From assembly GCA_963788965.1 (NCBI GenBank), contig CAWBIK010000007.1, positions 4,147 to 68,146 on the forward strand: 64,000 nt of DNA. The letters run 5' to 3'. The number at the start of each line of letters is the position of its first letter. The stretch's first letter is position 1. Below are positions 10,144 through 51,171 of this stretch, piece by piece. This DNA is from an uncultured Acidobacteriota bacterium (lineage in GTDB: Bacteria; Acidobacteriota; Blastocatellia; Pyrinomonadales; Pyrinomonadaceae). The notes under the pieces are model-generated. The model was not told where the DNA came from, did no database searches, and saw only the letters and a list, made by a program, of their open reading frames with translations. The position numbers were made by a program, and so were the translations under genes.

Positions 10144-11286
10144 TCACCTTAATTTCAACGTTGACAGACTCAACAACGCGAACAAGATCGCAAGGATCAA
10201 AAATCGGAAGACGACTTTAGACTCCTTCCAGCCCTGCATCTCGAAGTGATGATGCAGGGGCGTCATCTTAAAGAGTCGTCGCCCCGTGCCCGTGTGCCGC
10301 TTCGTCAGTTTGAAGAATGAGACTTGCAGCATCACCGAGATCGCTTCTAACACGAACACGCCGCCAACGAAGACTAAGATCAACTCCTGTTTCGTCAGCA
10401 CACCAATCGTGCCGATGGCCCCGCCGATGGCGAGGCTGCCCACGTCGCCCATGAACACGTCGGCGGGCGGCGCGTTGTACCACAAGAAGCCGAGGCTCGC
10501 GCCGACCATCGCGCCGCAGAAGACAGTCAACTCGCCCACGTCCTTCTGAAACGTGATGAGCAGCAGCCGCGCCCAACGCTCGTCGCCGCTCACATAGGTG
10601 AAGGCGGTCAACGTCGTCATCGCTACGAAGGTGACGCTGATCGCCAGTCCGTCTAAGCCGTCCGTCAGGTTCACGGAGTTCGACACGCCGATCAGCACGA
10701 CGAGGATGAACGGCAGATACAGCCACGGCCCGATGAACGTCTTGCCGGTTGTCGCCGTCAACTTGAAGAACGGGATGCTCAAGTTCCACGAGTAGTCCGT
10801 GAAGAAATAGAGCGTCGCCCAGATGCCGAGCGCGATAGCAAACTGCGCCGCGAGTTTCTGCTTGCCCGTTAGCCCCAAGCTCTGTCGCTTGGCGACCTTC
10901 GCGTAGTCGTCTAAGAATCCGACGACGGCAAAGAGCGTCGTCGCGGCCATCGTGATCCAGACATAGACGCTTGAGAGTCTGGCCCACAAGAGCGTCGAGA
11001 TCAGCACCGAGCCGATGATGAGTATGCCGCCCATCGTCGGCGTGCCGCGCTTAACCATGTGCGCCTGCGGCCCTTCTTCACGAATCTGCTGCCCGACGTT
11101 CAACTCGCGCAACGCGCGGATCACACGCCCGCCGAAGAACAGCGAGATCAGCAGCGCCGTGATCGTCGCGTAGGCCGTGCGAAACGTGACGTACTGAAAG
11201 ACGTTGAGTGCCTTAACGAAGACGGACTCCGTCTGTTGCACCGACAGGCTTTTGTAAAGCCACTCGTAAAAGATGTAATAGAGCAT
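10144..11286 (-). CDS. mraY: Phospho-N-acetylmuramoyl-pentapeptide transferase
   Basis: 380-aa polytopic ORF with MraY motifs ([35 protein letters not shown]). Confidence 0.95.
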
Positions 11287-20410: not shown

Positions 20411-21038
20411 ATGAACAAGAAACGGATTATGTTGCTGGCGGCGGTGGCCTTCGTGGCCCTGAGCGCGAGCGGCTGCGGTTACAATACACTGAATGCGAAG
20501 CACCAGGGCGTGCGGGCCAAGTGGGCGGGCGTTGAGACGCAGTTGCAGCGCCGCGCCGATCTGATCCCGAACCTGTTTGAAGCCGCGCAAGGCCGCGGGC
20601 ATACAGGAGCAAGAGGTCTTCGGCCAGATCGCCGAGGCGCGCTCGCGGCTCTTGAACGCAACGAGCGCCCCGCCGCAAGGTGAAGGCGGCGACAAGTCGC
20701 CCGAACAGAAGGCGCAAATCATCGCGGCGAACAACAGCTTCGGCGGCACTATCGGGCGCTTGCTCTCGCTATCGGAGAACTACCCGCAGCTTCGGTCCAA
20801 CGAAAGCTTCTTGAAATTTCAAGACGCGCTCGAAGGCACGGAGAATCGCATCAGCGTCGCACGCAACGATTACAATGCCAGCGTGCAAGACTACAACACG
20901 ACGCGCAGCAGTTTTCCGACCGTCCTCTTCGCCAAGATGTACGGCTTCAAAGAAGAACCCTACTTCGCCGCCGAAGACCGCGCGCGCACAGCCCCGACGA
21001 TCAACTCTGACACCCTGCGCCGCAACCAGAACCGCTAA
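20411..21038 (+). CDS. lemA: LemA family protein; one frameshift as sequenced
   Basis: ORFs 20411..20683 and 20577..21038 together give a lipoprotein-like N-terminus, WAGVETQLQRRADLIPNL, and then ENYPQLRSNESFLKFQDALEGTENRISVARNDYN, the LemA signature. The frame switch lies at about 20590-20600. Confidence 0.85.
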
Positions 21039-21053
21039 GCGCACGACGAAACG

Positions 21054-21093
21054 AAAAGAGGCCGCTGCTTGATCAAGCAGCGGCCTCTTTTTT
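21054..21093. terminator. Rho-independent, potentially bidirectional terminator
   Basis: aaaa-gaggccgctgctt-gatc-aagcagcggcctc-tttttt: a perfect 13-bp GC-rich stem flanked by an A-run and a T-run, immediately after lemA. Confidence 0.8.
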
Positions 21094-36741: not shown

Positions 36742-38602
<1,861 letters not shown>

Positions 38603-40749: not shown

Positions 40750-41178
40750 TCATACCTCCCGGACAGTCCCGCATAAGCTGAACAACTTGATGACCGTTTC
40801 GAGTAAGGGCGCGACGACGCACGGCGGCGGGCGCGGATTGTCCTTGCTGTACAGGACTGTGCGCGGCCGGCCGCGCTCGTCCGGCTCGACTATGCCAAGT
40901 CCGTCGCCGCCCGCAATCGGGAACCACGTCGCATACAACTCACAGTAGCCGTAGCCGATGGTGTAATACTCAAGATCAAAGGGCGGGTGCTGATGGCCGC
41001 GCTGGCAGCAGGGGCAATAGAAGCGCCGCCCGCTCTTGTCGAGGCGCACTGTGATCGTGTGCGGCAGACACATCGGCGTCAAAGCCTCCAAGCCAGCGGG
41101 CGAATATTCAGGGTGACGTTTAGCACTGCGCTCTGTTATCTTTGCGCCCGCGTTCTTTCGACTACAGGCAACGGCCAC
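40750..41178 (-). CDS. Hypothetical Cys/His-containing protein, divergent from the XRE gene
   Basis: 142-aa ORF, with an alternative start at MCLPHTI (41073). Contains YCPCCQRGHQHPP. No family recognised. Confidence 0.4.
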   Translation of the reverse strand: MAVACSRKNAGAKITERSAKRHPEYSPAGLEALTPMCLPHTITVRLDKSGRRFYCPCCQRGHQHPPFDLEYYTIGYGYCELYATWFPIAGGDGLGIVEPDERGRPRTVLYSKDNPRPPPCVVAPLLETVIKLFSLCGTVREV

Positions 41179-41270
41179 ATGCGTAGCTCACCCTTCACAC
41201 TTGAGTGATGAGCATCGCCGTTGAGTGCAACAGGTGCAAACTCGCGGCGAACTTCAAACGCAGTCAGAGT

Positions 41271-41290
41271 TTATCCGCAATTGCGGATAA
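41271..41290. promoter_or_regulatory. Perfect 20-bp palindrome TTATCCGCAATTGCGGATAA (putative XRE operator)
   Basis: An exact inverted repeat 46 nt upstream of the XRE ATG, in the divergent intergenic region between 40750..41178 (-) and the XRE gene (+). Confidence 0.5.
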
Positions 41291-41335
41291 AAACAAGTCG
41301 AATCTTCAATGTGTTCCATCAGGAGGTCACTTCTG

Positions 41336-41658
41336 ATGGGCGGTAAAGCGCGACAAAAGCCGAAACGCTTGGCCGACAAACTGGCTACAGATTCGCAATG
41401 CGCTCGGTCTTTCGCAATCGGATATGCTTCACTGCGTTTAGGAGTTCAAGATAGTATCAAGTACACCAGAATTTCAGAGTACGAGTTAGGCAAAGGTGAA
41501 CCATCATTACGACGCTCTTGCAATATGCGCGCGTTGCGAACGTATACATGGAAGTGCTCATTGACGACGCGCTAGACTTGCCCGACAATTTGCCAAGCCC
41601 AATGAAACATGAAGGTATCCGGCGCAAATCTGCCCCGCGAAGCAAATCAAAGCGATAG
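41336..41658 (+). pseudogene. XRE-family HTH transcriptional regulator, three frame switches as sequenced
   Basis: AGGAGG-N9-ATG at 41336. Stitching the frames gives MGGKARQKPKRLADKL / RQIRNALGLSQSDMLHC / LGVQDSIKYTRISEYELGKGEPSL / PTLLQYARVANVYMEVLIDDALDLP..., a canonical Cro/C1-type HTH. Switches at about 41383, 41437 and 41509. Confidence 0.75.
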
Positions 41659-41776
41659 CGCGGCCAGACTGCGCTTGATCTGTGCGTAAGGATTAAGTTC
41701 CGCCCTCATGATTCGGGGAAGACGGCCGGCCGCCGCGTTCTGCTATGCTGATCTCACCTTATAGCGAGGCCACACG

Positions 41777-44755
41777 ATGAAAAGAGTTTACGTTTCCTCA
41801 ACCTTCCTTGATTTGCAAGAGTGCCGCGCAAAAGTTAACGGCGCGCTGCGCCGCATGGGGCTGGAAGATGTGGCGATGGAGCATTACGTCGCCGACCACA
41901 GGCCGGCGGTTGATAAGTGTCTGGCAGATGTGGCCGCTTGCGATCTCTACGTGGGCGTCTTCGCGTGGCGACACGGCTTCGTGCCGAAGAAGGACAACCG
42001 CAAGAAGATGTCCATTACTGAGATGGAATATCGCCACGCGGTCAAGACCGGCAAGCCGCGTTTGATCTTTTTGTTGGATGAAGAGGCATCGTGGCCCGTC
42101 AAGCTCATCGACGACGATAAGAAACGCATCAAGCAACTGCGCGCCGAGTTGGCGAGGGATAACACCGTCTCTTTTTTCAAGTCGGCTGCGGAATTGGGCG
42201 AAGTGTTCGCGCCCGCAGTTCACAACTGGCTACGGGAGCATGGCCACCTCACGCCGGTCGCACGCCCCGCCGAGTTGGACTTGACGAACTACTACGCCGC
42301 TTTGCTCAAACGTTACCAGCGCATCGATCTGAACGCGCTGACGCCGCCGGAGAAGGAAGAGTATCTACAGTTGCAACTGCGGCAGGTGTTCGTCGCGCAG
42401 AGCGTGCGCGAGAATCCGCCGCCGGTCGAACTGCCGAAAGAGTTGTGGGACAAGCTGCGGCGCGAGGGCGAGTTGCATCATGAAGACTTGCCTGCGGGTG
42501 TTGCGCCCGATGATGTGTTGCGCGCGCGCACAGGCTACTACGAGAAGACGCCGCAGCCCGTGCTGGACGTGCTGACAGACGCGCGCCACAAGTACAGCAT
42601 CATTCTGGGCGATCCGGGCGCGGGCAAGTCCACGCTGGCGCGCTACGTCCTGCTGTCGTTGATTAGCGAAGAGGGCGACGAACGATTGCGCCGCGCCTTT
42701 GCCGGCCATGTGCCGCTGTTAATCGAACTGCGGAGCTACGCCGGTCTGTACGCGGACGGCAAGTGCGAGAGCTTCACGGAATTTCTCGTCACGCTGGGCA
42801 AGAGTGAAGGTTGGGGCATCGAACGCGAGGCGCTTGAGCATTATCTTAAACAGGACGGGCGCGCACTCGTCATCTTCGACGGGCTGGACGAAATCTTCGA
42901 CCCCGATCAACGCGAACAGATCGCGCACCGCATCGTCGGCTTCACCAACGAGTACCCGCAGGCGCGTCTCTTCGTCACCAGCCGCGTCATCGGCTACCGG
43001 CGCAAGATACTTGCCGACGCAGGCTTCGCACACTTCACGCTGCAAGATTTAGACGAGCCGCAGGTCGCAGAGTTCGTTACACGCTGGTACGACCTTGCCT
43101 TGAGCGACCAACCCGAAGAGGCCGCCGCGCGCCGCGAACGCATCCTGCGCGCGTTCAAAGACTCCGCTTCCATTCGCCAACTCGCGGGCAATCCGATGCT
43201 CTTGACCATCATGGCCATCATCGGCAAGCACAGAGAACTCCCGCGCGAGCGTTGGAAACTCTACGAGCACGCCGCCAGCGTCCTTGTCGAGCATTGGGAC
43301 GTAGGCAAGCACCTGAAAGACCACAGCATCGACGCCCCTTTCATCGAAGAAGACGACAAGAAAGAACTGCTGCGCCGGCTCGCCTTCAAGATGCAGGCGG
43401 GCGCAGGCGGGTTAGCGGGCAACTACATCCACCGCGACGAATTGCAGACCGAGTTCGAGGGCTATCTAACAGAACGTTATGAACTGACACCGGCAGCGGC
43501 GAAGCCCGTCGCCCGCGCGATGCTCGAACAGTTCCGCGAGCGCAACTTCATCCTCTCGCTCTACGGCGCGAACATCTACGGCTTCGTCCACCGCGCCTTT
43601 CTCGAATACTTCTGCGCCACGGCGTTCACACACAAGTTCGAGAAGACGCGCGCGATAACGCCCGACGAATTGAAGCGCGACGTTTACGGCGCACACTGGC
43701 GCGAGCGTAGCTGGCACGAAGTCCTGCGCCTGATCTGCGGCATCCTTGACGAGAAGTTCGCTGGCGAGATCATTGACTTCCTTGTGACGGAAATTAAGCC
43801 GCCAACGGATGGCTGGACTGATGAACAGCCGCCGTGGAACATAGCTCTGGCCATACAGTGCCTCGGCGAAGTCCGAAACCTCGGCACGGTCGCAGACCCC
43901 GCGCGGCGACTGTTACAGGCTGTATGCACATTCCTTGAAACTGAGCTGAAGAGCGGCAACTTCAAGCTTTATGGCTTTCTACATGATCCAATCGTCACCT
44001 CAATCGAAACAATCGGCCCGAACTGGCCGCACAGAGCCGTGTTAGCAGAGTGGCTGAAAGGATTACCTTCCATAGATTTCTCTTATTATTATGCTGAACC
44101 ATTCGGGCGGATTGTCGGCTCAGTTGGTGCGGGGCTGAAGGAAATACATCAGAGCATCTTGTCTTTTGCAGCCCACGATGATGTGAGATACCGGACACTA
44201 GCACTATTCGCATTAGCCATAGGGTGGCATAACAACACCGCGACCCTGCCGCTGTTGCGCGCCCGCGCCGTCGAGGACGCACACCAATATGTTCGCAGCA
44301 CGGCGCTCAATGCGTTGGCACAGCACTACCGCGCGGACGCCGCGACCCTGCCGCTGTTGCGCGCCCGCGCCGTCGAGGACGCACACCAATATGTTCGCAG
44401 CACGGCGCTCGAAGCGTTGGCGCAGCACTACCGCGCGGACGCCGCGACCCTGCCGCTGTTGCAGGCGCGCGCCGTCGAAGATGCAGACCAATATGTTCGC
44501 AGCACGGCGCTCAATGCGTTGGCACAGCACTACCGCGCGGACGCCGCGACCCTGCCGCTGTTGCGCGCCCGCGCCGTCGAGGACGCACACCAATATGTTC
44601 GCAGCACGGCGCTCAATGCGTTGGCGCAGCACTACCGCGCGGACGCCGCGACCCTGCCGCTGTTGCGCGCCCGTGCGAAGGATGACGAATCAGAGTTGGT
44701 GAAAATGACAGCCCGAAGACGTGCGGAAGAGTTGAGTCGCGCCGTGGTGTCGTAG
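41777..44755 (+). CDS. STAND NTPase: DUF4062 (TIR-like) N-terminus, NACHT ATPase, C-terminal HEAT repeats
   Basis: Intact 992-aa ORF. N-terminus VYVSSTFLDLQECR...CDLYVGVFAWRHGF...SITEMEYRHAVKTGKPRLIFLL matches the DUF4062 pattern. Walker A ILGDPGAGKSTLA. Walker B ALVIFDGLDEI. C-terminus has PBS-lyase-type HEAT repeats (DAHQYVRSTALNALAQHY). Confidence 0.9.
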   Translation: MKRVYVSSTFLDLQECRAKVNGALRRMGLEDVAMEHYVADHRPAVDKCLADVAACDLYVGVFAWRHGFVPKKDNRKKMSITEMEYRHAVKTGKPRLIFLLDEEASWPVKLIDDDKKRIKQLRAELARDNTVSFFKSAAELGEVFAPAVHNWLREHGHLTPVARPAELDLTNYYAALLKRYQRIDLNALTPPEKEEYLQLQLRQVFVAQSVRENPPPVELPKELWDKLRREGELHHEDLPAGVAPDDVLRARTGYYEKTPQPVLDVLTDARHKYSIILGDPGAGKSTLARYVLLSLISEEGDERLRRAFAGHVPLLIELRSYAGLYADGKCESFTEFLVTLGKSEGWGIEREALEHYLKQDGRALVIFDGLDEIFDPDQREQIAHRIVGFTNEYPQARLFVTSRVIGYRRKILADAGFAHFTLQDLDEPQVAEFVTRWYDLALSDQPEEAAARRERILRAFKDSASIRQLAGNPMLLTIMAIIGKHRELPRERWKLYEHAASVLVEHWDVGKHLKDHSIDAPFIEEDDKKELLRRLAFKMQAGAGGLAGNYIHRDELQTEFEGYLTERYELTPAAAKPVARAMLEQFRERNFILSLYGANIYGFVHRAFLEYFCATAFTHKFEKTRAITPDELKRDVYGAHWRERSWHEVLRLICGILDEKFAGEIIDFLVTEIKPPTDGWTDEQPPWNIALAIQCLGEVRNLGTVADPARRLLQAVCTFLETELKSGNFKLYGFLHDPIVTSIETIGPNWPHRAVLAEWLKGLPSIDFSYYYAEPFGRIVGSVGAGLKEIHQSILSFAAHDDVRYRTLALFALAIGWHNNTATLPLLRARAVEDAHQYVRSTALNALAQHYRADAATLPLLRARAVEDAHQYVRSTALEALAQHYRADAATLPLLQARAVEDADQYVRSTALNALAQHYRADAATLPLLRARAVEDAHQYVRSTALNALAQHYRADAATLPLLRARAKDDESELVKMTARRRAEELSRAVVS
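44240..44680 (+). repeat. Near-identical 102-bp (34-aa) tandem repeats inside the NACHT gene, 4 full copies plus 1 partial
   Basis: gcgaccctgccgctgttgcgcgcccgcgccgtcgaggacgcacaccaatatgttcgcagcacggcgctcaatgcgttggcacagcactaccgcgcggacgcc recurs at 44240, 44342, 44444 and 44546 with only a few substitutions. Confidence 0.85.
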
Positions 44756-44779
44756 ATTCGGGCATGCGGGGCGCGGATA

Positions 44780-45250
44780 GGGCGGGGCGGGGTGGGAGAT
44801 GCGGCGGGCGGGGGGGTGAAGTGAGGCGGTGGGGGTGAAAATCGTCGTGCGGGCGTGAAAGTCGAGCAGTGCGGGTGTTGAGGCGAGGCGGGGCGCGTGT
44901 GAAGTCTGCCAGTGCGGGCGTGAGGCGGGTGGTGCGGGGTGTAAATCGAGCCAGTGCGGGCGTAAACCGTGCCGGTGCGGGGAAAAGTGAGCCAGTGCGG
45001 GCGTGAAATTTAGCCGGTGCGGGGTTGATCTGAGCCAGTGCGGCGAAAAATCGTGCGGTGCGGGAAAAAGTTGTGCGGTGCGGGCGTGGAGTCGTAGCGG
45101 GGCGAGCGAAAATCTCGGCCGGGCGGGTCGAAATCGTGCCGTGCGGGGTGTAAACGTGGCCGTGCGGGTTGAAAACGGGGCGGTGCGGGCCGCAATGGCG
45201 GCGGGGCGGCGTTGAGTGGCGATGTGCGGGCGTTGTGGGTCGGCGCGCAG
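44780..45250. repeat. Tandem array C: degenerate 20-22-bp repeat with GTGCGGG core, about 20 units
   Basis: GTGCGGG-like cores at 44847, 44869, 44912, 44932, 44954, 44975, 44995, 45017, 45038, 45058, 45078, 45141, 45162, 45183 and 45224. Degenerate units lie between them. Typical unit: gtgcgggcgtgaaatttagccg. Confidence 0.8.
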
Positions 45251-45256
45251 GGCGGC

Positions 45257-45335
45257 GGATTGTAGATTGCGGAATGCGGAATGCGGATTAAGCAGACAGT
45301 TGTTCTTATAACCCGAAATCCCCGCTCCGCAATCG
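45257..45335. repeat. Heptamer-tiled palindromic element, GCGGATT/AATCCGC family (right arm degenerate)
   Basis: gattgta gattgcg gaatgcg gaatgcg gatt - aagcagacagttgttcttata - acccgaaatccccgctccgcaatcg. Confidence 0.6.
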
Positions 45336-45457
45336 TCTTTGTTTGCGGTGGCGCGTTGTGTGTATAATGTGCGCTCTCGTAAGGGGCGTGTTGTGCGCCC
45401 TTTTCTCACAGGTAGCCTCGCAAGACCTCTAACCTACCACAAAAGGAGATAGCCTCA

Positions 45458-46139
45458 ATGAATGATCTGGAAACTCGCAGGCACGAGATGCTGGTGCGCG
45501 TGCGTGATTTTGGGACGACGCACGCGGGCGCGTTCCCGGCCGGTAGTCTGGGCAGCGAGCAGTTGAACGTCCTCGGCGCGCGCCGTGAAGGAGTTGGAAC
45601 AGCACGCGACGACGCAGACTTCCAGCGCGGGCGCGGCGCGACAGGGCAGCACATCAAGGGCCGTGGCGCATGCGGCCCTGCGCGAAGACCTGCTGGCCAT
45701 CACACGCACGGCGCGCGCGCTGGCGTTGGACGTGCCGGGCCTAGACGACAAGTTTCGCCTGCCGCGCAGCGGGAGCGACACGGCGCTGCTCAACTCAGCG
45801 CGCGCCTTCGCCGCCGATGCCGCGCCGCTCACAGCCGAGTTCATCAGACACGAACTGCCCGCAGACTTCCTCGACGACCTCAACGCCGACATCGCAGACT
45901 TCGAGCAAGCCGTCAACAGCCAGAACACAGGCATGGACGCGCGCGTCGCCGCCACCGCCGCCATCGACGGCGCGCTCGAACGCGGACTCAAAGCCGTGCA
46001 GCGCCTAGACGTGATCGTGCGGAACAAGTTCCACAACGACCTGTCCACGCTCGCCGCGTGGACGAGTGCAAGCCACGTCGAGCGTGCGCCGAAGCGGAAA
46101 CAGACGGTGGCGTCGCCGGATGCGCCGGCCAAAGCTTGA
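45458..46139 (+). CDS. Hypothetical protein; one frameshift as sequenced
   Basis: ORFs 45458.. and 45585..46139 join at about 45575-45590 (MNDLETRRHEMLVRVRDFG... / ...ELEQHATTQTSS...AAWTSASHVERAPKRK). No family recognised. Confidence 0.5.
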
Positions 46140-46230
46140 TTGCGGAATGCGGAGTGCCAATTTCGGAATGCGGATTGCGGATTGTAAAGACAAGTGTTCC
46201 TTAATCCGCAATCCGAAATCCGAAATTGGC
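46138..46230. repeat. Heptamer-tiled palindromic element, GCGGATT/AATCCGC family
   Basis: gattgcggaatgcggagtgccaatttcggaatgcggattgcggatt - gtaaagacaagtgttcctt - aatccgcaatccgaaatccgaaattggc. Confidence 0.8.
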
Positions 46231-46484: not shown

Positions 46485-47042
46485 ATGCATATGGAGCGAA
46501 GCGCGGCCCGCAAGCCCGTGAGCGCGCGCCTGTTGGCCCTCGTCTGCCTGCTGCTGTTGTCGGCCGGCGCGGCGTTTGGCCAAGAAGCGAGCGCGCAGGC
46601 GACGGCCGCCGAACAGGAGTTGAACGTGTCGGATGTATTGAAACTGCCGGGCAAGGTGATCGGGCGTGGCGTGAACACGACGACAACTAAGGGCGTGGCG
46701 AAGTTGCGCTCGTACCGCGTCGAAGAAGTGACGCTGCCGCAGATCACCGAGGTCGAGTTGAGCGGACAGCGCGTGCCCGTGACGAAAGCGTTCCGTCTGG
46801 TCTTGACGGGCGGGCCGTTCCCCGTGCGGGCGCTACCGGCGGTCGTCTGGTTGGACGACGTGGCCGTGGGCTACGGCATCGAGAACGAAGACCTGACCGA
46901 GATCAGTGTCGTCACTTATGACGAGGCGCTGTTGCGCGACGGCGCGACCATCGCGCTCTCGTATGGCGACAAAGAGAACAAGAAAGACCGCACGGCGCTG
47001 CCGGAGAAACTCAAGCTCGACACGAAAGGAGTCCAACCTTAA
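46485..47042 (+). CDS. Secreted hypothetical protein
   Basis: 185-aa ORF with a signal peptide (LLALVCLLLLSAGAAFGQ). Its stop overlaps the next ATG (TAATG). Confidence 0.5.
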   Translation: MHMERSAARKPVSARLLALVCLLLLSAGAAFGQEASAQATAAEQELNVSDVLKLPGKVIGRGVNTTTTKGVAKLRSYRVEEVTLPQITEVELSGQRVPVTKAFRLVLTGGPFPVRALPAVVWLDDVAVGYGIENEDLTEISVVTYDEALLRDGATIALSYGDKENKKDRTALPEKLKLDTKGVQP

Positions 47043-48781
47043 TGCATAGACACCTCACGCCCCTCGCACTCACATTACTTTTGACATTGGCGTGCGCGTT
47101 CGTCGCCACCGCCCAGACACCCGACCCCGGCACAACCGGCCCTTACGCCGTCACGCGCGAAGAGTACAACTACGGCAACAGCGTCTTTCGCCCGACCGGC
47201 TTCCCGATCTCCGTCGAACTGCGCGCCTCGGTCCATCACCCGACCGACATGACCGGCGGCCCCTTCCCTGTCGTCGTCTTCCTGCACGGGCGGCACGCCA
47301 CCTGTTATCGCAACTCGACGGCCACGCTGCGCTGGCCATGTCTCAGCAACGAGCAACCGATCCCAAGTTTTCAAGGCTACGACTACATCGCCCAGACATT
47401 AGCCAGCAACGGCTACTTCGTCATCTCGGTCAGCGCCAACGGCATCAACGCCTACGACAACAACGTGGCCGACCTCGGCATGCAGGCGCGCGCCGAACTC
47501 ATGCAGCGCCACCTCAGTCAGTGGCAGACCTTCAACACCACGGGCGCAGCGCCCTTCGGCACGAAGTTCGTCGGCAAAGTTGACCTAACGCGCGTCGGCA
47601 CGATGGGCCACTCGCGCGGCGGCGAAGGCGTCGTCAAACATTATGTCTATAACGCCAGCTTAGGCTCGCCCTACGGCATCAAGGCCGTCTTCCCGCTCGC
47701 GCCCGTTGACTTCAACCGGCCCGTCGCCAACAACGCCGCGCTCGGCGTCGTCCTGCCCTACTGCGACGGCGACGTGAGCGACAATCAAGGCGTCCACTTC
47801 TACGACGACGCGCGCTACAACGTCGCGGGCGACACCGGCGCGAAGCACACCATCCAAGTGATGGGCGGCAATCACAACTACTACAACACCATCTGGACAC
47901 CCGGCATGTTCCCCGCCGGCACGTCCGACGATTGGACGGCCTACGTCACCGGCGGCACGCTCGACGGGCAGTGCGGCACGGTCGCGGGCAACAAACGCCT
48001 GACCAGCGCGCAGCAGCGCGGCACTGGCCTCGCTTACCTGTCGGCCTTCATGCGCGTCTACGTCGGCGGCGAGACGCAGTTCACGCCCATCCTGACGGGC
48101 GCGGCCCCGCCGCCCGCGTCCGCGCAGACGACCGCCATCAACGTCTCCTATCACGCGCCCGACGCGGCCACGAAGCGCCGCGACGTGAACCGTCTGCTGA
48201 CCGCCACGAACCTGACCACCAACACGCTCGGCGGCGCAACCACGCAGACGGGCCTGACGCCGCACGACCTCTGCGGCGGCAACTCGCCCCAGCCGCAGCA
48301 CTGTCTCCCGCTACCCAATCCACCAGTCGTCAACCGCACACCACGCCGAGCGCACGCGCGACGACCTTGCGCGGCCTCAGCCAACTACGCACAGGCTGGA
48401 ACGGCGGCGGCGCGAGCTACACGAACACGCTCCCCGCCGGCACGAACAACGTGAGCGGCTTCCAAGCTGCTACAGTTCCGCGTCAGCGTCAACTTCGCCG
48501 ACCTGCGCAACCCGAACGCCGCGCAGAACTTCTCCGTCGTGTTGATCGACGGCACAGGCGCGCAAAGCACTGTGCGCGTCGGCGACGTGTCCGGCGCACT
48601 CTTCTATCCGCCGGGCACAACCGGCCCCGTGCCGAAAGTCCTCTTGAACATGGTGCGCGTCCCGCTCACCTCGTTCACGGGCGTCAACCTGTCCGACATA
48701 CGCACCGTCAAATTCCAGTTCGATCAAACCGCACAGGGCGCACTCCTGATCTCCGATCTCGCCTTCGCCTCTGCGCCCTAA
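47042..48781 (+). CDS. Secreted alpha/beta hydrolase (lipase/cutinase/PAF-acetylhydrolase-like) with C-terminal domain; two frameshifts as sequenced
   Basis: Signal peptide, then the nucleophile elbow VGTMGHSRGGEG. The C-terminal part is recovered in other frames (HTTPSARATTLRGLSQLRTGWNGGGASYTN..., then LLQFRVSVNFADLRN...ISDLAFASAP). Switches at about 48300-48340 and about 48465. Confidence 0.7.
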
Positions 48782-49387: not shown

Positions 49388-51171
49388 ATGCTTGCGCCGG
49401 AGACAATCTTGCAGGAGCGTTATCGCGTCGTGCGCCAGTTGGGGCAAGGCGGGATGGGGGCGGTGTATGAGGCGATGGACGAGCGCCTGCATCGCACGGT
49501 GGCGTTGAAGGAGACGCTGGTTGAGCATGAGGAGTTGCGGCGCGCGTTCGCGCGTGAGGCGCGGCTGCTGGCGAACTTGAATCATCCGGCGCTGCCGAAG
49601 GTGATCGATCATTTCAGCGAGGGCACAGGCCAGTATCTCGTGATGGAGTTCATCGCGGGCGCTGATCTGGCGCAGCAACTCACGGAGCAGGGGCGGCCGT
49701 TTCCGGTCGAGCCGGTGCTGGCTTGGGCGGACGAGTTGTTGGACGCGCTCGAATATTTGCACGCGCTCGAACCGCCCGTCATCCACCGCGACATTAAACC
49801 GGCGAACCTGAAGCTCACGCCCAAAGGGCATGTGGTCCTGCTCGACTTCGGGTTGGCGAAGGGCACGGCCGGGCAGATGACGCGCGCGCACGCGAGCCAG
49901 AGCGTGCTCGGCTACACGCCCAACTACGCCGCGCTGGAACAGATACAAGGCGAGCGCACCAGCCCGCGCTCAGACCTCTACTCGCTCGCGGCCACGCTCT
50001 ACCACCTGCTGACAGGCCACGCGCCCATCGACGCATTGAAGCGCGCTACTGAAGCATTACACGACGAGATCGATCCGTTGCGCCCCGCGCATGAAGTCAA
50101 CCCGGAAGTGTCGGTCGCGTTGAGCAACGTGCTGCTGCGCGCGCTGGCGCTCCGGCCCACGCTCCGCCCCGCGAATGCCGCCGACCTGCGCGCCGCACTC
50201 GCACAGGCCCGCACGGGCGCACCCGTCACGCAAGCCGACGACGAGGCGACGCGCGTGCATCTGCCCGCGACGATCATAGGCGCACAGACAACGCAGGACC
50301 TGGAACGCGACACGATGCTCATGCCGCCGCGCGTTGACAGCCGACCCGCGCAGCCGACAACAACGCCGACGCACGCGGGCGCGACCGTCGCAGCCCGCGC
50401 ACCGCACACACGCACGGCGGCCGGCGCTGGTCGCTAATCGCCGCGCCCTTCCTCGTCCTCATGCTGCTTGCCATCGGCTTCTTCGCTTATCAAGCCTATC
50501 GCGCCGGGTTGAACACACAGCAGACCGCGCCCGCCACGGCGTCGCCTCAACCACAGACCAGTCAACCGTCGTCCGCGCAGACCGCGCCGACGACGCAGCC
50601 GGTCGCACAGACAGCGCAAACGCCCCCAAGCGCGAGCGCGCCCACGCCTGCCGCGACCCGCACGCCCGCGCCGGCCGCTACGCCCGACGACAAGCCACGC
50701 ACCGATCAGCAGCGCGCTGAACAGCAGCAACGCGCCGAACAGCAACGCGCACCGCAACAGCAACGCGCGGCCGAAGCGTTGGTGGATGCGCCCGACGCGC
50801 CGCAGGTTAATCTGCCACCCGGCGCAGCCATCTTGCGGTTGCCGTCGGCCCGTGTGCAAGCGGAACTGCAAAGCGCCCGCGCCGAGTTAAACCGGGCCCG
50901 CATCGGGCGCGAGGCCGCGCGGCGCGACTTCCAACGCGCGCGCCAACAGTTCAAGGCCGGCGAGATCGATCAAGCTCAATATCAGGCCGCCGAAGGGCGC
51001 GTGACCGCAGCCAACCAGACGCTCGACGCGGCCGCCATGCGCTACGAGGCGCTCAGGGCCGCGGCGCAGGCGCTCGCGCCCAACGGCGTACAAGTGCCCG
51101 CGCCCGGCATGGACACGCCGGCCCTACCGCGCCGGCCGCGCCGCATCGTCGTCCGACCGCGCACGCCTTGA
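49388..51171 (+). CDS. Membrane-anchored Ser/Thr protein kinase with Pro/Gln-rich and coiled-coil extracytoplasmic tail; one frameshift as sequenced
   Basis: LGQGGMGAVYEA...VALKE...HRDIKPANL...DFGLAK are Hanks kinase motifs in ORF 49388..50437. The TM helix RRWSLIAAPFLVLMLLAIGFFAY and the tail are in the frame of ORF 50461..51171, which is open upstream to about 50340. Confidence 0.8.

Follow-up and report, generated by a model that had tools for sequence, protein, structure and literature searches.

The DUF4062 domain has been described as a TIR-like NADase whose products are ADP-ribose and nicotinamide; in Swarozyc it is switched on by the phage portal, and human TEP1 is likewise an active NADase (10.64898/2026.05.01.722283). 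Renamed NIR, the domain is the effector of PsAvs2 (NIR-STAND-TPR, STAND being signal transduction ATPases that have numerous domains), of Vulcan, which is a direct NIR-HEAT fusion, and of Vesta, and NIR proteins are enriched near defence genes, 20% versus 3.9% (10.64898/2026.09.04.749371). Evangelion is a further DUF4062 family (10.64898/2026.06.25.731849), and in a 2026 survey of STAND proteins DUF4062 is absent from the main text (PMC13581612). The catalytic glutamate of the known NIR domains is E97 in KpSwz, E108 in PsAvs2, E98 in Vulcan and E1008 in TEP1, and the bacterial NIR proteins tested so far are all anti-phage NADases (2026 preprints). Here we describe a locus in a 64,000-nt stretch of DNA (the window) from an uncultured bacterium of the Pyrinomonadaceae (Acidobacteriota). 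It contains a gene for a protein of this kind, which resembles the NOD-like receptors (NLR), and directly upstream of it a small cassette consisting of a gene for an XRE-family helix-turn-helix (HTH) protein, a perfect palindrome and a divergent gene for a small Cys/His protein.

The cassette may be compared with the controller (C) proteins of restriction-modification (R-M) systems. C proteins belong to the small HTH proteins of the XRE family, and the palindromic box to which they bind lies just upstream of the gene that encodes them; their modules are portable and found before different toxic effector genes, and the box sequences differ between subfamilies. There are two differences. Firstly, the putative operator of the cassette lies inside a conserved upstream open reading frame (ORF) of 42 aa, within a structured leader of ~190 nt, and the translation of the XRE gene is apparently coupled to that ORF. 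Secondly, the partners of C proteins are restriction enzymes, whereas those of the cassette are STAND, TIR, SIR2 and Cas proteins, often encoded convergently. Two reports describe BrxR/CapW (WYL) and CapH-CapP as transcription-factor modules beside many defence systems (PMC9122601; 10.1101/2022.04.27.489752). In contrast to these, Pfam searches of the XRE and Cys/His proteins and of the upstream neighbours found neither a WYL domain nor a CapP metallopeptidase in the window, and the divergent partner of the cassette is a response regulator or a Cys/His protein.

On balance we favour the view that the locus consists of two separable units lying side by side, the NLR-like gene (41777-44755) and the cassette (40750-41658). 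By its sequence, the latter represents one copy of a regulatory cassette that is conserved and self-contained and belongs to Pyrinomonadaceae-like soil bacteria. When the repaired XRE protein and the Cys/His protein were compared by tblastn with 82 loci that carry NLR homologs, no match was found in any of them (0/82), and the two closest NLR contexts, L001 (72% identity) and L002, have no regulator upstream. The NLR orthologues without an XRE gene carry TATAAT-like boxes 35-60 nt upstream. The window gene is preceded by the -10-like box TGCTATGCT, a pattern that occurs only 3 times in the window and, as a promoter-like sequence, is most likely the NLR gene's own promoter. No second operator was found in the window; the sole one is upstream of the XRE gene and not at the NLR promoter. 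In the locus L172 the same cassette is followed by an array of the kind found downstream of the NLR-like gene here, and the NLR-like gene is absent. The reciprocal search (tblastn of the NLR-like protein against ~90 other loci, L084-L173, which had been gathered for the cassette, its partners and XRE relatives) gave one distant NACHT match, in L168, with 28% identity.

The initial annotation had proposed instead that the XRE protein is the dedicated repressor of the NLR-like gene, that both belong to one operon-like module, and that the frameshifts of the regulator, if real, would inactivate it and derepress the NTPase. A few points do weigh in its favour and against a clean separation. The XRE and NLR-like genes are on the same strand with a gap of 118 nt, and read-through into the latter is possible because no intrinsic terminator was detected between the XRE gene and the -10-like box. 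Elsewhere, cassettes lie directly upstream of and on the same strand as NACHT (L104), Roc-COR-TIR (L111), Roc-COR (L163), SIR2 (L157) and cas (L088) genes, which makes a regulatory link plausible. The promoter of the NLR-like gene is predicted from a consensus-like box only, and the three lesions in 322 bp of the XRE gene are a strong excess over the local density (Poisson P ~5e-5 to 2e-4). Nevertheless, we consider a dedicated repressor unlikely. Besides the 82 NLR loci without an XRE gene, the promoter-like boxes of the orthologues, the position of the single operator and the arrangement in L172, many neighbours of cassettes are convergent and not operonic. Moreover, a stretch of 14 kb contains no fewer than 5 other frame lesions, including one in the essential glmS, which speaks for an indel-prone assembly, and L083, from the same strain, has the look of a long-read assembly rich in errors. 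The XRE gene, the palindrome and the Cys/His gene are thus linked to each other as an independent cassette; the evidence speaks against a dedicated regulator of the NLR-like gene. If the cassette does influence the NLR-like gene, this would happen through read-through from the cassette promoter and not through an operator at the NLR promoter.

The order of elements in the cassette is promoter, structured leader, upstream ORF (which holds the palindrome) and XRE gene (Table 1). About 200 nt upstream of XRE homologs are conserved as DNA across unrelated loci, and we analysed this region in an alignment (A5) of 64 non-identical leaders obtained from a metagenome scan. The -35-like and -10-like boxes of the putative promoter are positionally conserved in cassette loci, e.g. 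in L092, L102, L106, L131 and L172. In L086 (2875-2905) the -10-like box of the cassette lies inside a GC-rich inverted repeat, e.g. GCGCGCGGCATCTGCTATCATGCCGCGCGC, and the same is seen in L093, L107, L111 and L124; this repeat could serve as another operator, perhaps one for the response regulator encoded divergently. In addition to the nearly invariant block listed in the table, the leaders share the invariant block GTCTTTGAAAA. An Rfam scan of 40.6-41.8 kb gave chance-level matches only and no family. In 61 of the 64 leaders, as well as in the window, no stop interrupts the upstream ORF between its conserved ATG and the TGATG overlap. It has 39-44 codons, typically begins with MSIAVEH and is divergent in the middle; in L172 and L173 the JGI gene caller annotated it as a gene of 42 aa.

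The leader contains two conserved hairpins. The helix of the first is 82% paired and shows compensatory changes, including GC to AU in 9 sequences and UA to AU. The second, the start-site hairpin (CCCAUCAGGAG/CUCCUGAUGGG), buries the Shine-Dalgarno (SD) sequence and AUG of the XRE gene together with the stop codon of the upstream ORF. Its pairing reaches 93.6%, and its variation is mostly G.U wobble (17-24 sequences per pair), which is a signature at the RNA level. Over the whole structure 87.9% of the cells are paired, against 37-43% when the partners are slid, and two-sided changes occur in 212 cells as opposed to 67±11 in shuffled alignments, none of which (0/500) reached 212. A riboswitch-like alternative pairing, CAACGGC/GCCGTTG, is 90% complementary; both of its sides are nearly invariant, and its covariation does not exceed that of shuffles (26/500). 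Since the start-site hairpin buries the XRE SD and AUG, synthesis of the XRE protein should depend on translation of the upstream ORF: ribosomes translating this ORF would permit XRE synthesis. We infer from the sequence that the two are translationally coupled. Two or three XRE paralogues may stand in tandem (L103 2326-3330, L110 7001-7960, and also L095, L106, L112, L118, L148 and L151), and in such arrays only the first copy has the leader and the operator.

The palindrome described in the initial annotation is real and perfect, although its length is 22 and not 20 bp. It is one of two perfect palindromes of at least 18 bp in the 64 kb and is unique in the window, and 0/100 shuffles give a match with up to 3 mismatches. 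The other one is a 30-bp sequence, GAGGCCGCTGCTTGATCAAGCAGCGGCCTC, at 21058-21087; it lies just after the ORF 20577-21038 and is terminator-like. In 45 of the 64 cassettes a palindrome stands at a constant distance from the XRE ATG (-66 to -72), against 1% of shuffles. It is specific to the locus, its sequence differs in nearly every subfamily, all 8 pairs covary, and there are almost no G.U pairs. The half-sites co-vary with the recognition-helix region of the XRE protein (partial Mantel r=0.32, p=0.0005): TAGTCAC is found with YRHY(V/I)S, TATCTAT with PYTRISKYE and TATCCGC with YTRIS(D/E)YE, and the closest XRE relative (L091) has the same half-site as the window. It must be said against this that the rest of the XRE protein also correlates with the half-site (r=0.27), i.e. 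phylogeny confounds the comparison. Because of the fixed offset, the covariation of pairs and the half-sites that track the recognition region, we read the palindrome as very likely the operator of the XRE protein, which would bind it, within the upstream ORF, in an autoregulatory manner. A role as an RNA stem is disfavoured, as almost no G.U pairs occur, unlike in the start-site hairpin, and as the half-sites track the recognition helix.

The XRE gene itself was correctly recognised as such by the initial annotation. It has three frame changes, located by alignment to intact homologs: a surplus G at 41383/4, a surplus TG at 41433-4 (alternatively readable as a loss of 1 nt in an extra codon) and a base missing after 41510. 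After repair of these indels the product of 106-107 aa matches HTH_3 with 28.5 bits (cut-off 23) and aligns end to end with hundreds of intact homologs of 104-107 aa, at 60-73% identity; 935 homologs were found at E<=1e-3.

The divergent Cys/His gene is genuine and is a recurrent partner of the cassette, although its initial reading as a 142-aa ORF was too long. All of the homologs (27/27) align to residues 36-116 of that ORF and an identical product of 107 aa is on record (P0268), therefore we place the gene at the shorter frame. The motifs F-x-CPxC-x-R-x-H-x-HPP and FPIxGGDGLGIV are conserved. The gene is divergent to the cassettes in L131, L108, L172 and L173 and is a partner in 5 loci overall; in other cassette loci the divergent gene codes for a response regulator. 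The Cys/His protein has no Pfam or PADLOC match, and its AlphaFold2 (AF2) model is unusable, with a predicted local distance difference test (pLDDT) score of 47.6.

Table 1. Positions in the window of the elements of the cassette, of the NLR-like gene and of the neighbouring features discussed in the text (RBS, ribosome-binding site).
Feature	Position	Strand	Remarks
Cys/His gene, 107 aa	40750..41073	-	ATG at 41073, i.e. M36 of the 142-aa ORF
Putative cassette promoter	41112..41142	+	-35-like GGTGACG, 41112-41118; extended -10-like TGTTATCTT, 41134-41142
Leader block GGCAACGGCC..ATGCGTAGCTCA	41167..41190	+	Columns nearly invariant in 64 leaders (A5)
Upstream ORF, 42 aa, MSIAVEC...SGGHF	41208..41336	+	TGA stop overlaps the XRE ATG (TGATG)
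Leader hairpin 1, ATCGCCG-TTGAGTGCA ... TGCAAACTC-GCGGCGA	41214..41250	+	RNAalifold
Perfect 22-bp palindrome TTTATCCGCAATTGCGGATAAA	41270-41291		Putative XRE operator
Start-site hairpin CCAUCAGGAG-GUCA-CUUCUGAUGG	41316..41339	+	Helix 3 of A5
XRE-family HTH gene	41336..41658	+	ATG 41336, RBS AGGAGG, stop 41656-41658, three indels
-10-like box TGCTATGCT	41741..41749	+	28 nt upstream of the NLR start codon
NLR-like gene, 992 aa	41777-44755	+	Reading frame intact
NIR/DUF4062 TIR-like effector domain	41777..42241	+	Pfam PF13271, E=2.9e-20
Codon of the putative catalytic Glu, E84	42026-42028	+	Aligned to KpSwz E97
NACHT NTPase domain	42593..43090	+	Pfam PF05729, residues 273-438, 47.3 bits (cut-off 26.7), E=2.6e-12
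Walker A, GDPGAGKST	42608-42634	+	Residues 278-286
Walker B, VIFDGLDEI	42869-42892	+	Residues 365-373
C-terminal HEAT-repeat array	44174..44731	+	Pfam HEAT_2, 73.3 bits, E=2e-20
Array of ~20 degenerate 21-nt units on GTGCGGG, then (A/G)ATGCGG heptads	44765..45295	+
glmS	36742-38602		Two overlapping ORFs in different frames owing to a single-base indel in GTTCTTGACG, 37900-37925
Gene 45458-46139	45458-46139		RBS AAGGAGA, ATG 45458; switches near 45580 to the frame of ORF 45585-46139
PETase-like gene	47042-48781		Arg/Pro/Thr-rich, out-of-frame-looking stretch, then in-frame TGA, 48452-48454
Hanks-type Ser/Thr kinase	49388-51171		Split across two frames near 50420-50460

The second unit, the NLR-like gene, is intact and has the DUF4062, NACHT and HEAT domains that had been assigned to it, with profile matches to all three and both Walker motifs present. 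The DUF4062 model is matched over its whole length by residues 3-88 with 72.7 bits (gathering cut-off 24.7), and the Pfam model NPHP3_N also matches the protein. In an alignment of 26 relatives (A1) the Walker A and Walker B residues and E84 are invariant. By phmmer, the N-terminal domain matches the E97A chain of KpSwz DUF4062 in the PDB (10wc). In this alignment the TEKAF of KpSwz stands opposite the TEMEY of SITEMEY in the window protein, so that the mutated E97 position faces E84, and we take E84 to be the equivalent of the catalytic glutamate. An AF2 model built with the 26 sequences (pLDDT 83.4) has a five-strand beta/alpha N-terminal domain, then a nucleotide-binding and oligomerisation (NOD) module and a C-terminal solenoid. 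The order of strands (E) and helices (H) in the N-terminal domain is E3-7, H11-26, E30-33, H44-54, E57-62, H80-90, E95-100, H115-129, E130-134 and H137-154, which is compatible with the NIR/DUF4062 fold. The NACHT module and helical domains fill residues ~270 to ~700, and in the HEAT region the model forms a helical solenoid, at pLDDT >90. The best Foldseek matches of the model are NOD2 (5irm, E=9e-9), NLRC4 (4kxf), NLRP3 and NAIP5, followed by karyopherin-like HEAT proteins; the full-length search is dominated by NACHT and HEAT. Both the tripartite order effector-NTPase-repeat and an NLR-like NOD fold are found in the window protein (Pfam, Foldseek), and profiles and predicted structure support its assignment to the NLR-like STAND NTPases, with the TIR-like DUF4062 domain as effector and the HEAT array as sensor. 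Its predicted structure and its catalytic residues agree with its being functional.

The family of this protein is large: 1,326 matches were found at E<=1e-10, nearly all with DUF4062, NACHT and HEAT. Species-representative genomes hold 348 relatives, from Pyrinomonadaceae/Blastocatellia, Anaerolineae, actinomycetes, cyanobacteria, Polyangia and Methanosarcina. Many relatives align only from about residue 166 onward, and for this reason the N-terminal effector is taken to be exchangeable. The HEAT array contains 4.3 tandem units of 102 bp (34 aa) at 44238-44673 with 94% matches (TRF), and the 34-aa copies vary at three positions only (R/Q, H/D and N/E), which suggests a recent amplification or homogenisation of the sensor array. 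The lengths in the family, 814-1718 aa with a variable number of repeats, together with the near-identical units would fit expansion and contraction of the array.

The initial annotation knew of no experimental characterisation of this combination of effector and sensor. For the effector this no longer holds, since NADase activity was shown in 2026 for PsAvs2 and Vulcan; the exact NIR-NACHT-HEAT architecture appears untested. PsAvs2 of Pseudomonas chlororaphis resembles the window protein in having an N-terminal NIR domain, in PsAvs2 a NADase, with the catalytic glutamate, a central STAND module and C-terminal helical repeats, and it is a single-gene system for which abortive infection via NAD+ depletion was shown experimentally (10.64898/2026.09.04.749371). 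However, its NTPase is of the Avs2 clade and its TPR sensor recognises terminase, whereas the window protein has a NACHT-clade (NOD2/NLRP3-like) NTPase and a HEAT array, and the Avs models of PADLOC do not match it. Vulcan of Enterobacter roggenkampii shares the NIR effector and the HEAT sensor, and its defence depends on the NADase (E98) (10.64898/2026.09.04.749371). Vulcan has no NTPase, whereas the window protein has a NACHT/helical module of ~650 aa between NIR and HEAT, so activation, i.e. nucleotide-dependent oligomerisation, should differ from that of Vulcan. The bNACHT proteins, TEP1, NWD1/2 and NPHP3 have a NACHT domain with Walker A and B motifs and the same effector-NTPase-repeat layout, and in TEP1, NWD1 and NPHP3 DUF4062 stands beside NACHT as it does here. 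The eukaryotic DUF4062-NACHT proteins differ in their WD40 or TPR repeats and in their contexts, such as the vault ribonucleoprotein, and none of the tested bNACHT proteins in the literature surveyed has a NIR effector with HEAT repeats. NIR-NACHT-HEAT is thus a recombination of demonstrated modules and its kind is already known; NLR-like proteins that bear NIR together with various repeats had been noted before.

By analogy with these relatives, the NLR-like protein is most likely an immune sensor with a NADase effector, and an anti-phage role, as initially annotated, is the best inference from homology. Following PsAvs2, Vulcan, Swarozyc and bNACHT/Avs, the HEAT solenoid would bind a trigger protein, probably derived from a phage; this would free the NACHT module for ATP binding and oligomerisation, and in the end the infected cell would be arrested (abortive infection). 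Several observations count against an antiviral role, which we infer from the domains alone. The neighbours of NLR homologs are mostly housekeeping genes, among which queuosine synthase recurs. Within two genes on either side, about 3 credible defence matches (a type IIG R-M enzyme, PtuB and a PD-T4-6-like kinase) were found in 33 NLR-homolog loci with 129 neighbour ORFs, a raw count with no matched background. PADLOC models do not recognise the protein either; they gave no specific match, only matches of P-loop length at E>=0.0036, and PADLOC-DB v2.0.0 (2023) is older than the NIR work. PADLOC searches with fragments of the XRE protein and with the neighbouring genes likewise gave nothing specific.

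These observations are also what one would expect if NIR-NACHT-HEAT were a resident signalling or cell-fate STAND, acting in programmed cell death in response to stress or kin or in NAD-linked regulation, and comparable to the eukaryotic TEP1, NWD1 and NPHP3, which are not classical antiviral receptors. The housekeeping neighbours with their recurring queuosine synthase speak for stable chromosomal residence, the 72% orthologue is partly syntenic and as diverged as its flanking genes, and actinomycetes, cyanobacteria, myxobacteria and Acidobacteriota are over-represented among the members of the family. We regard this explanation as improbable: it is at odds with the uniform anti-phage NADase activity of the bacterial NIR proteins tested so far and with the enrichment of NIR proteins near defence genes cited above, and swappable effectors with near-identical, expandable sensor repeats are hallmarks of immune NLRs. 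An immune sensor therefore remains our preferred reading of the NLR-like gene.

The drop in GC content at 41.2-41.8 kb that had been noted is confirmed (0.49-0.51 against ~0.62 elsewhere), but the accompanying idea of an accessory island has become weak. The flanking genes of L001 are 74-79% identical to those of the window, and next to the NLR orthologue this locus keeps, in altered order, the 185-aa protein, the PETase-like gene, the kinase and a remnant of orf184. The GC content at third codon positions (GC3) of the NLR-like gene is 0.74, only slightly below the 0.79-0.85 of its neighbours. No insertion scars were found around the gene, whose flanks share only an 8-mer. Since the L001 orthologue is as diverged as the flanking genes and GC3 is close to that of the neighbours, the NLR-like gene seems to be a long-term resident and not part of a recent island.

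That the XRE gene is the only frameshifted gene of the locus, as initially stated, is literally true but misleading, since glmS, the gene at 45458-46139, the PETase-like gene and the kinase are also disrupted. The indel in glmS falls inside the first SIS domain of an essential gene, which points to indel errors in the assembly. The gene at 45458-46139 has no Pfam or PADLOC match; in L001 the NLR orthologue is followed by what is left of this gene (11028-11144). In the PETase-like gene there are probably two compensating indels, because the 579-aa L001 orthologue aligns straight through the lesion. The kinase of L001 is a single protein of 596 aa with a transmembrane segment; the kinase matches the PADLOC PD-T4-6 models (E=3e-75), probably through generic similarity of Hanks kinases. 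L083, an independent contig, has an indel-riddled end and small indel differences in the non-coding array, which suggests a long-read assembly. It begins at window position 41604 with an error-ridden first 1.1 kb and so gives no independent reading of the XRE indels. Assembly error is the parsimonious explanation of the scattered lesions, and the zero lesions in the 2,979 bp of the NLR-like gene are unremarkable (P ~0.35-0.5). The XRE indels may reflect either a true pseudogene or a spot where the assembly is poor. As the assembly is demonstrably indel-prone, we draw no conclusion on derepression from the frameshifts, and inferences of this type from the contig are unsafe.

The repeat array downstream of the NLR-like gene was confirmed. 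An array of the same kind, with a phase of 20-22 nt, is found in L172 at ~190 nt after the XRE stop with no NLR-like gene between them; as the L172 array directly follows the XRE gene, the NLR-like gene was either inserted between cassette and array in the window lineage or lost in L172. The L172 array lies at about 110-450 on the minus strand, and the arrays are strongly G-rich on one strand. Such arrays could be phased protein-binding sites, a non-coding RNA or, on the opposite strand, a C-rich rut-like site. An ORF that runs through the array on the minus strand (44690-45409) is regarded as a by-product of the stop-free repeat unit. On the two sides of the gene 45458-46139, at 45255-45335 and 46139-46213, lie runs of (A/G)ATGCGG heptads and the 9-mers ATTGCGGAT (46174) and ATCCGCAAT (46204). 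These 9-mers are identical to the cores of the operator half-sites but form an inverted repeat that points outward, with a distance of 21 nt.

The neighbourhoods of the cassette in other loci are of interest. First or second neighbours include a NACHT protein of 1,490 aa (L104), LRR-Roc-COR-TIR (L111) and LRR-Roc-COR (L163) proteins, SIR2 (L157), a type I cas operon (L088-90), TIR_2 with TPR (L086), TIR-NB-ARC-TPR (L108, L099), NACHT (L168), NACHT-HEAT (L159), a Pycsar-type TIR (L147) and TPR-CHAT (L172). A STAND, TIR, SIR2, Cas or CHAT gene is the first or second neighbour in at least 13 of ~47 cassette loci; this is a raw count with no matched genomic background, and the enrichment of immune genes beside cassettes is suggestive only. 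Among the NLR-homolog loci the corresponding figure, for PADLOC-type defence genes within two genes on either side, is lower, at about 3 of 33. Other neighbours are DNA methylases, extracytoplasmic function (ECF) sigma factors, a transposase, a ligase, TraG and housekeeping genes. The STAND neighbours are not relatives of the window's NLR-like protein, apart from the distant one in L168. L173 is syntenic with the window (glmS, a Gly-zipper protein, the Cys/His gene and the upstream ORF-XRE pair), and its XRE gene is intact. Mobile genes are also seen near cassettes: a relaxase in L088 (1-929), a TraG/type IV secretion system coupling protein in L137 (7993-10044) and a Mutator transposase in L112 (1298-2590). 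Because these genes lie so close, at least a part of the cassette family probably rides on mobile elements.

We speculate, at somewhat less than even chances, that the cassette is a portable controller with fast-diversifying operators that is preferentially placed beside toxic immune effectors and gates or times their expression, the window being one such pairing. This previously undescribed controller may comprise the XRE gene, the palindrome, the 42-aa ORF, the SD/AUG hairpin and, in a subset, the Cys/His gene. Its effectors may be NACHT/NB-ARC STANDs, Roc-COR-TIR, SIR2, Pycsar-type TIR and CHAT proteins and type I cas operons, and dozens of distinct palindromes may co-vary with the recognition helix. 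The phased GTGCGGG array, which in two loci lies after the cassette, could be a further part of this controller. It is very unlikely that the cassette and the Cys/His gene are instead an immunity remnant of a prophage or mobile element, unrelated to host immune genes: the layout of divergent small gene, palindromic operator and XRE gene does resemble cI/cro-type switches, the cassette is low in GC, and the mobile genes named above and a BrnT/BrnA pair (L084) are nearby, but only 1 XRE relative was found in 2.9 million viral contigs, L173 keeps the cassette in a glmS neighbourhood like that of the window, the cassettes in the loci examined are not adjoined by integrase genes or by structural genes of phages, and genomes carry several paralogous copies, also in tandem arrays.

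Of the two units the NLR-like gene adds little that is new, even though it is a reasonable candidate to extend the tested NIR systems to NACHT/HEAT. Members of the NIR-NACHT-HEAT family abound in Acidobacteriota, actinomycetes, cyanobacteria and Methanosarcina, and the family has a parallel in the human DUF4062-NACHT proteins. The cassette is the most novel element of the locus. The restraint of self-toxic immune effectors is poorly understood outside BrxR/CapW and CapH-CapP, and the cassette offers a compact, testable model of such regulation with its structured leader, predicted translational coupling, hypervariable operators and placement beside STAND, TIR, SIR2 and Cas genes. It could also mark immune genes in under-studied soil phyla.

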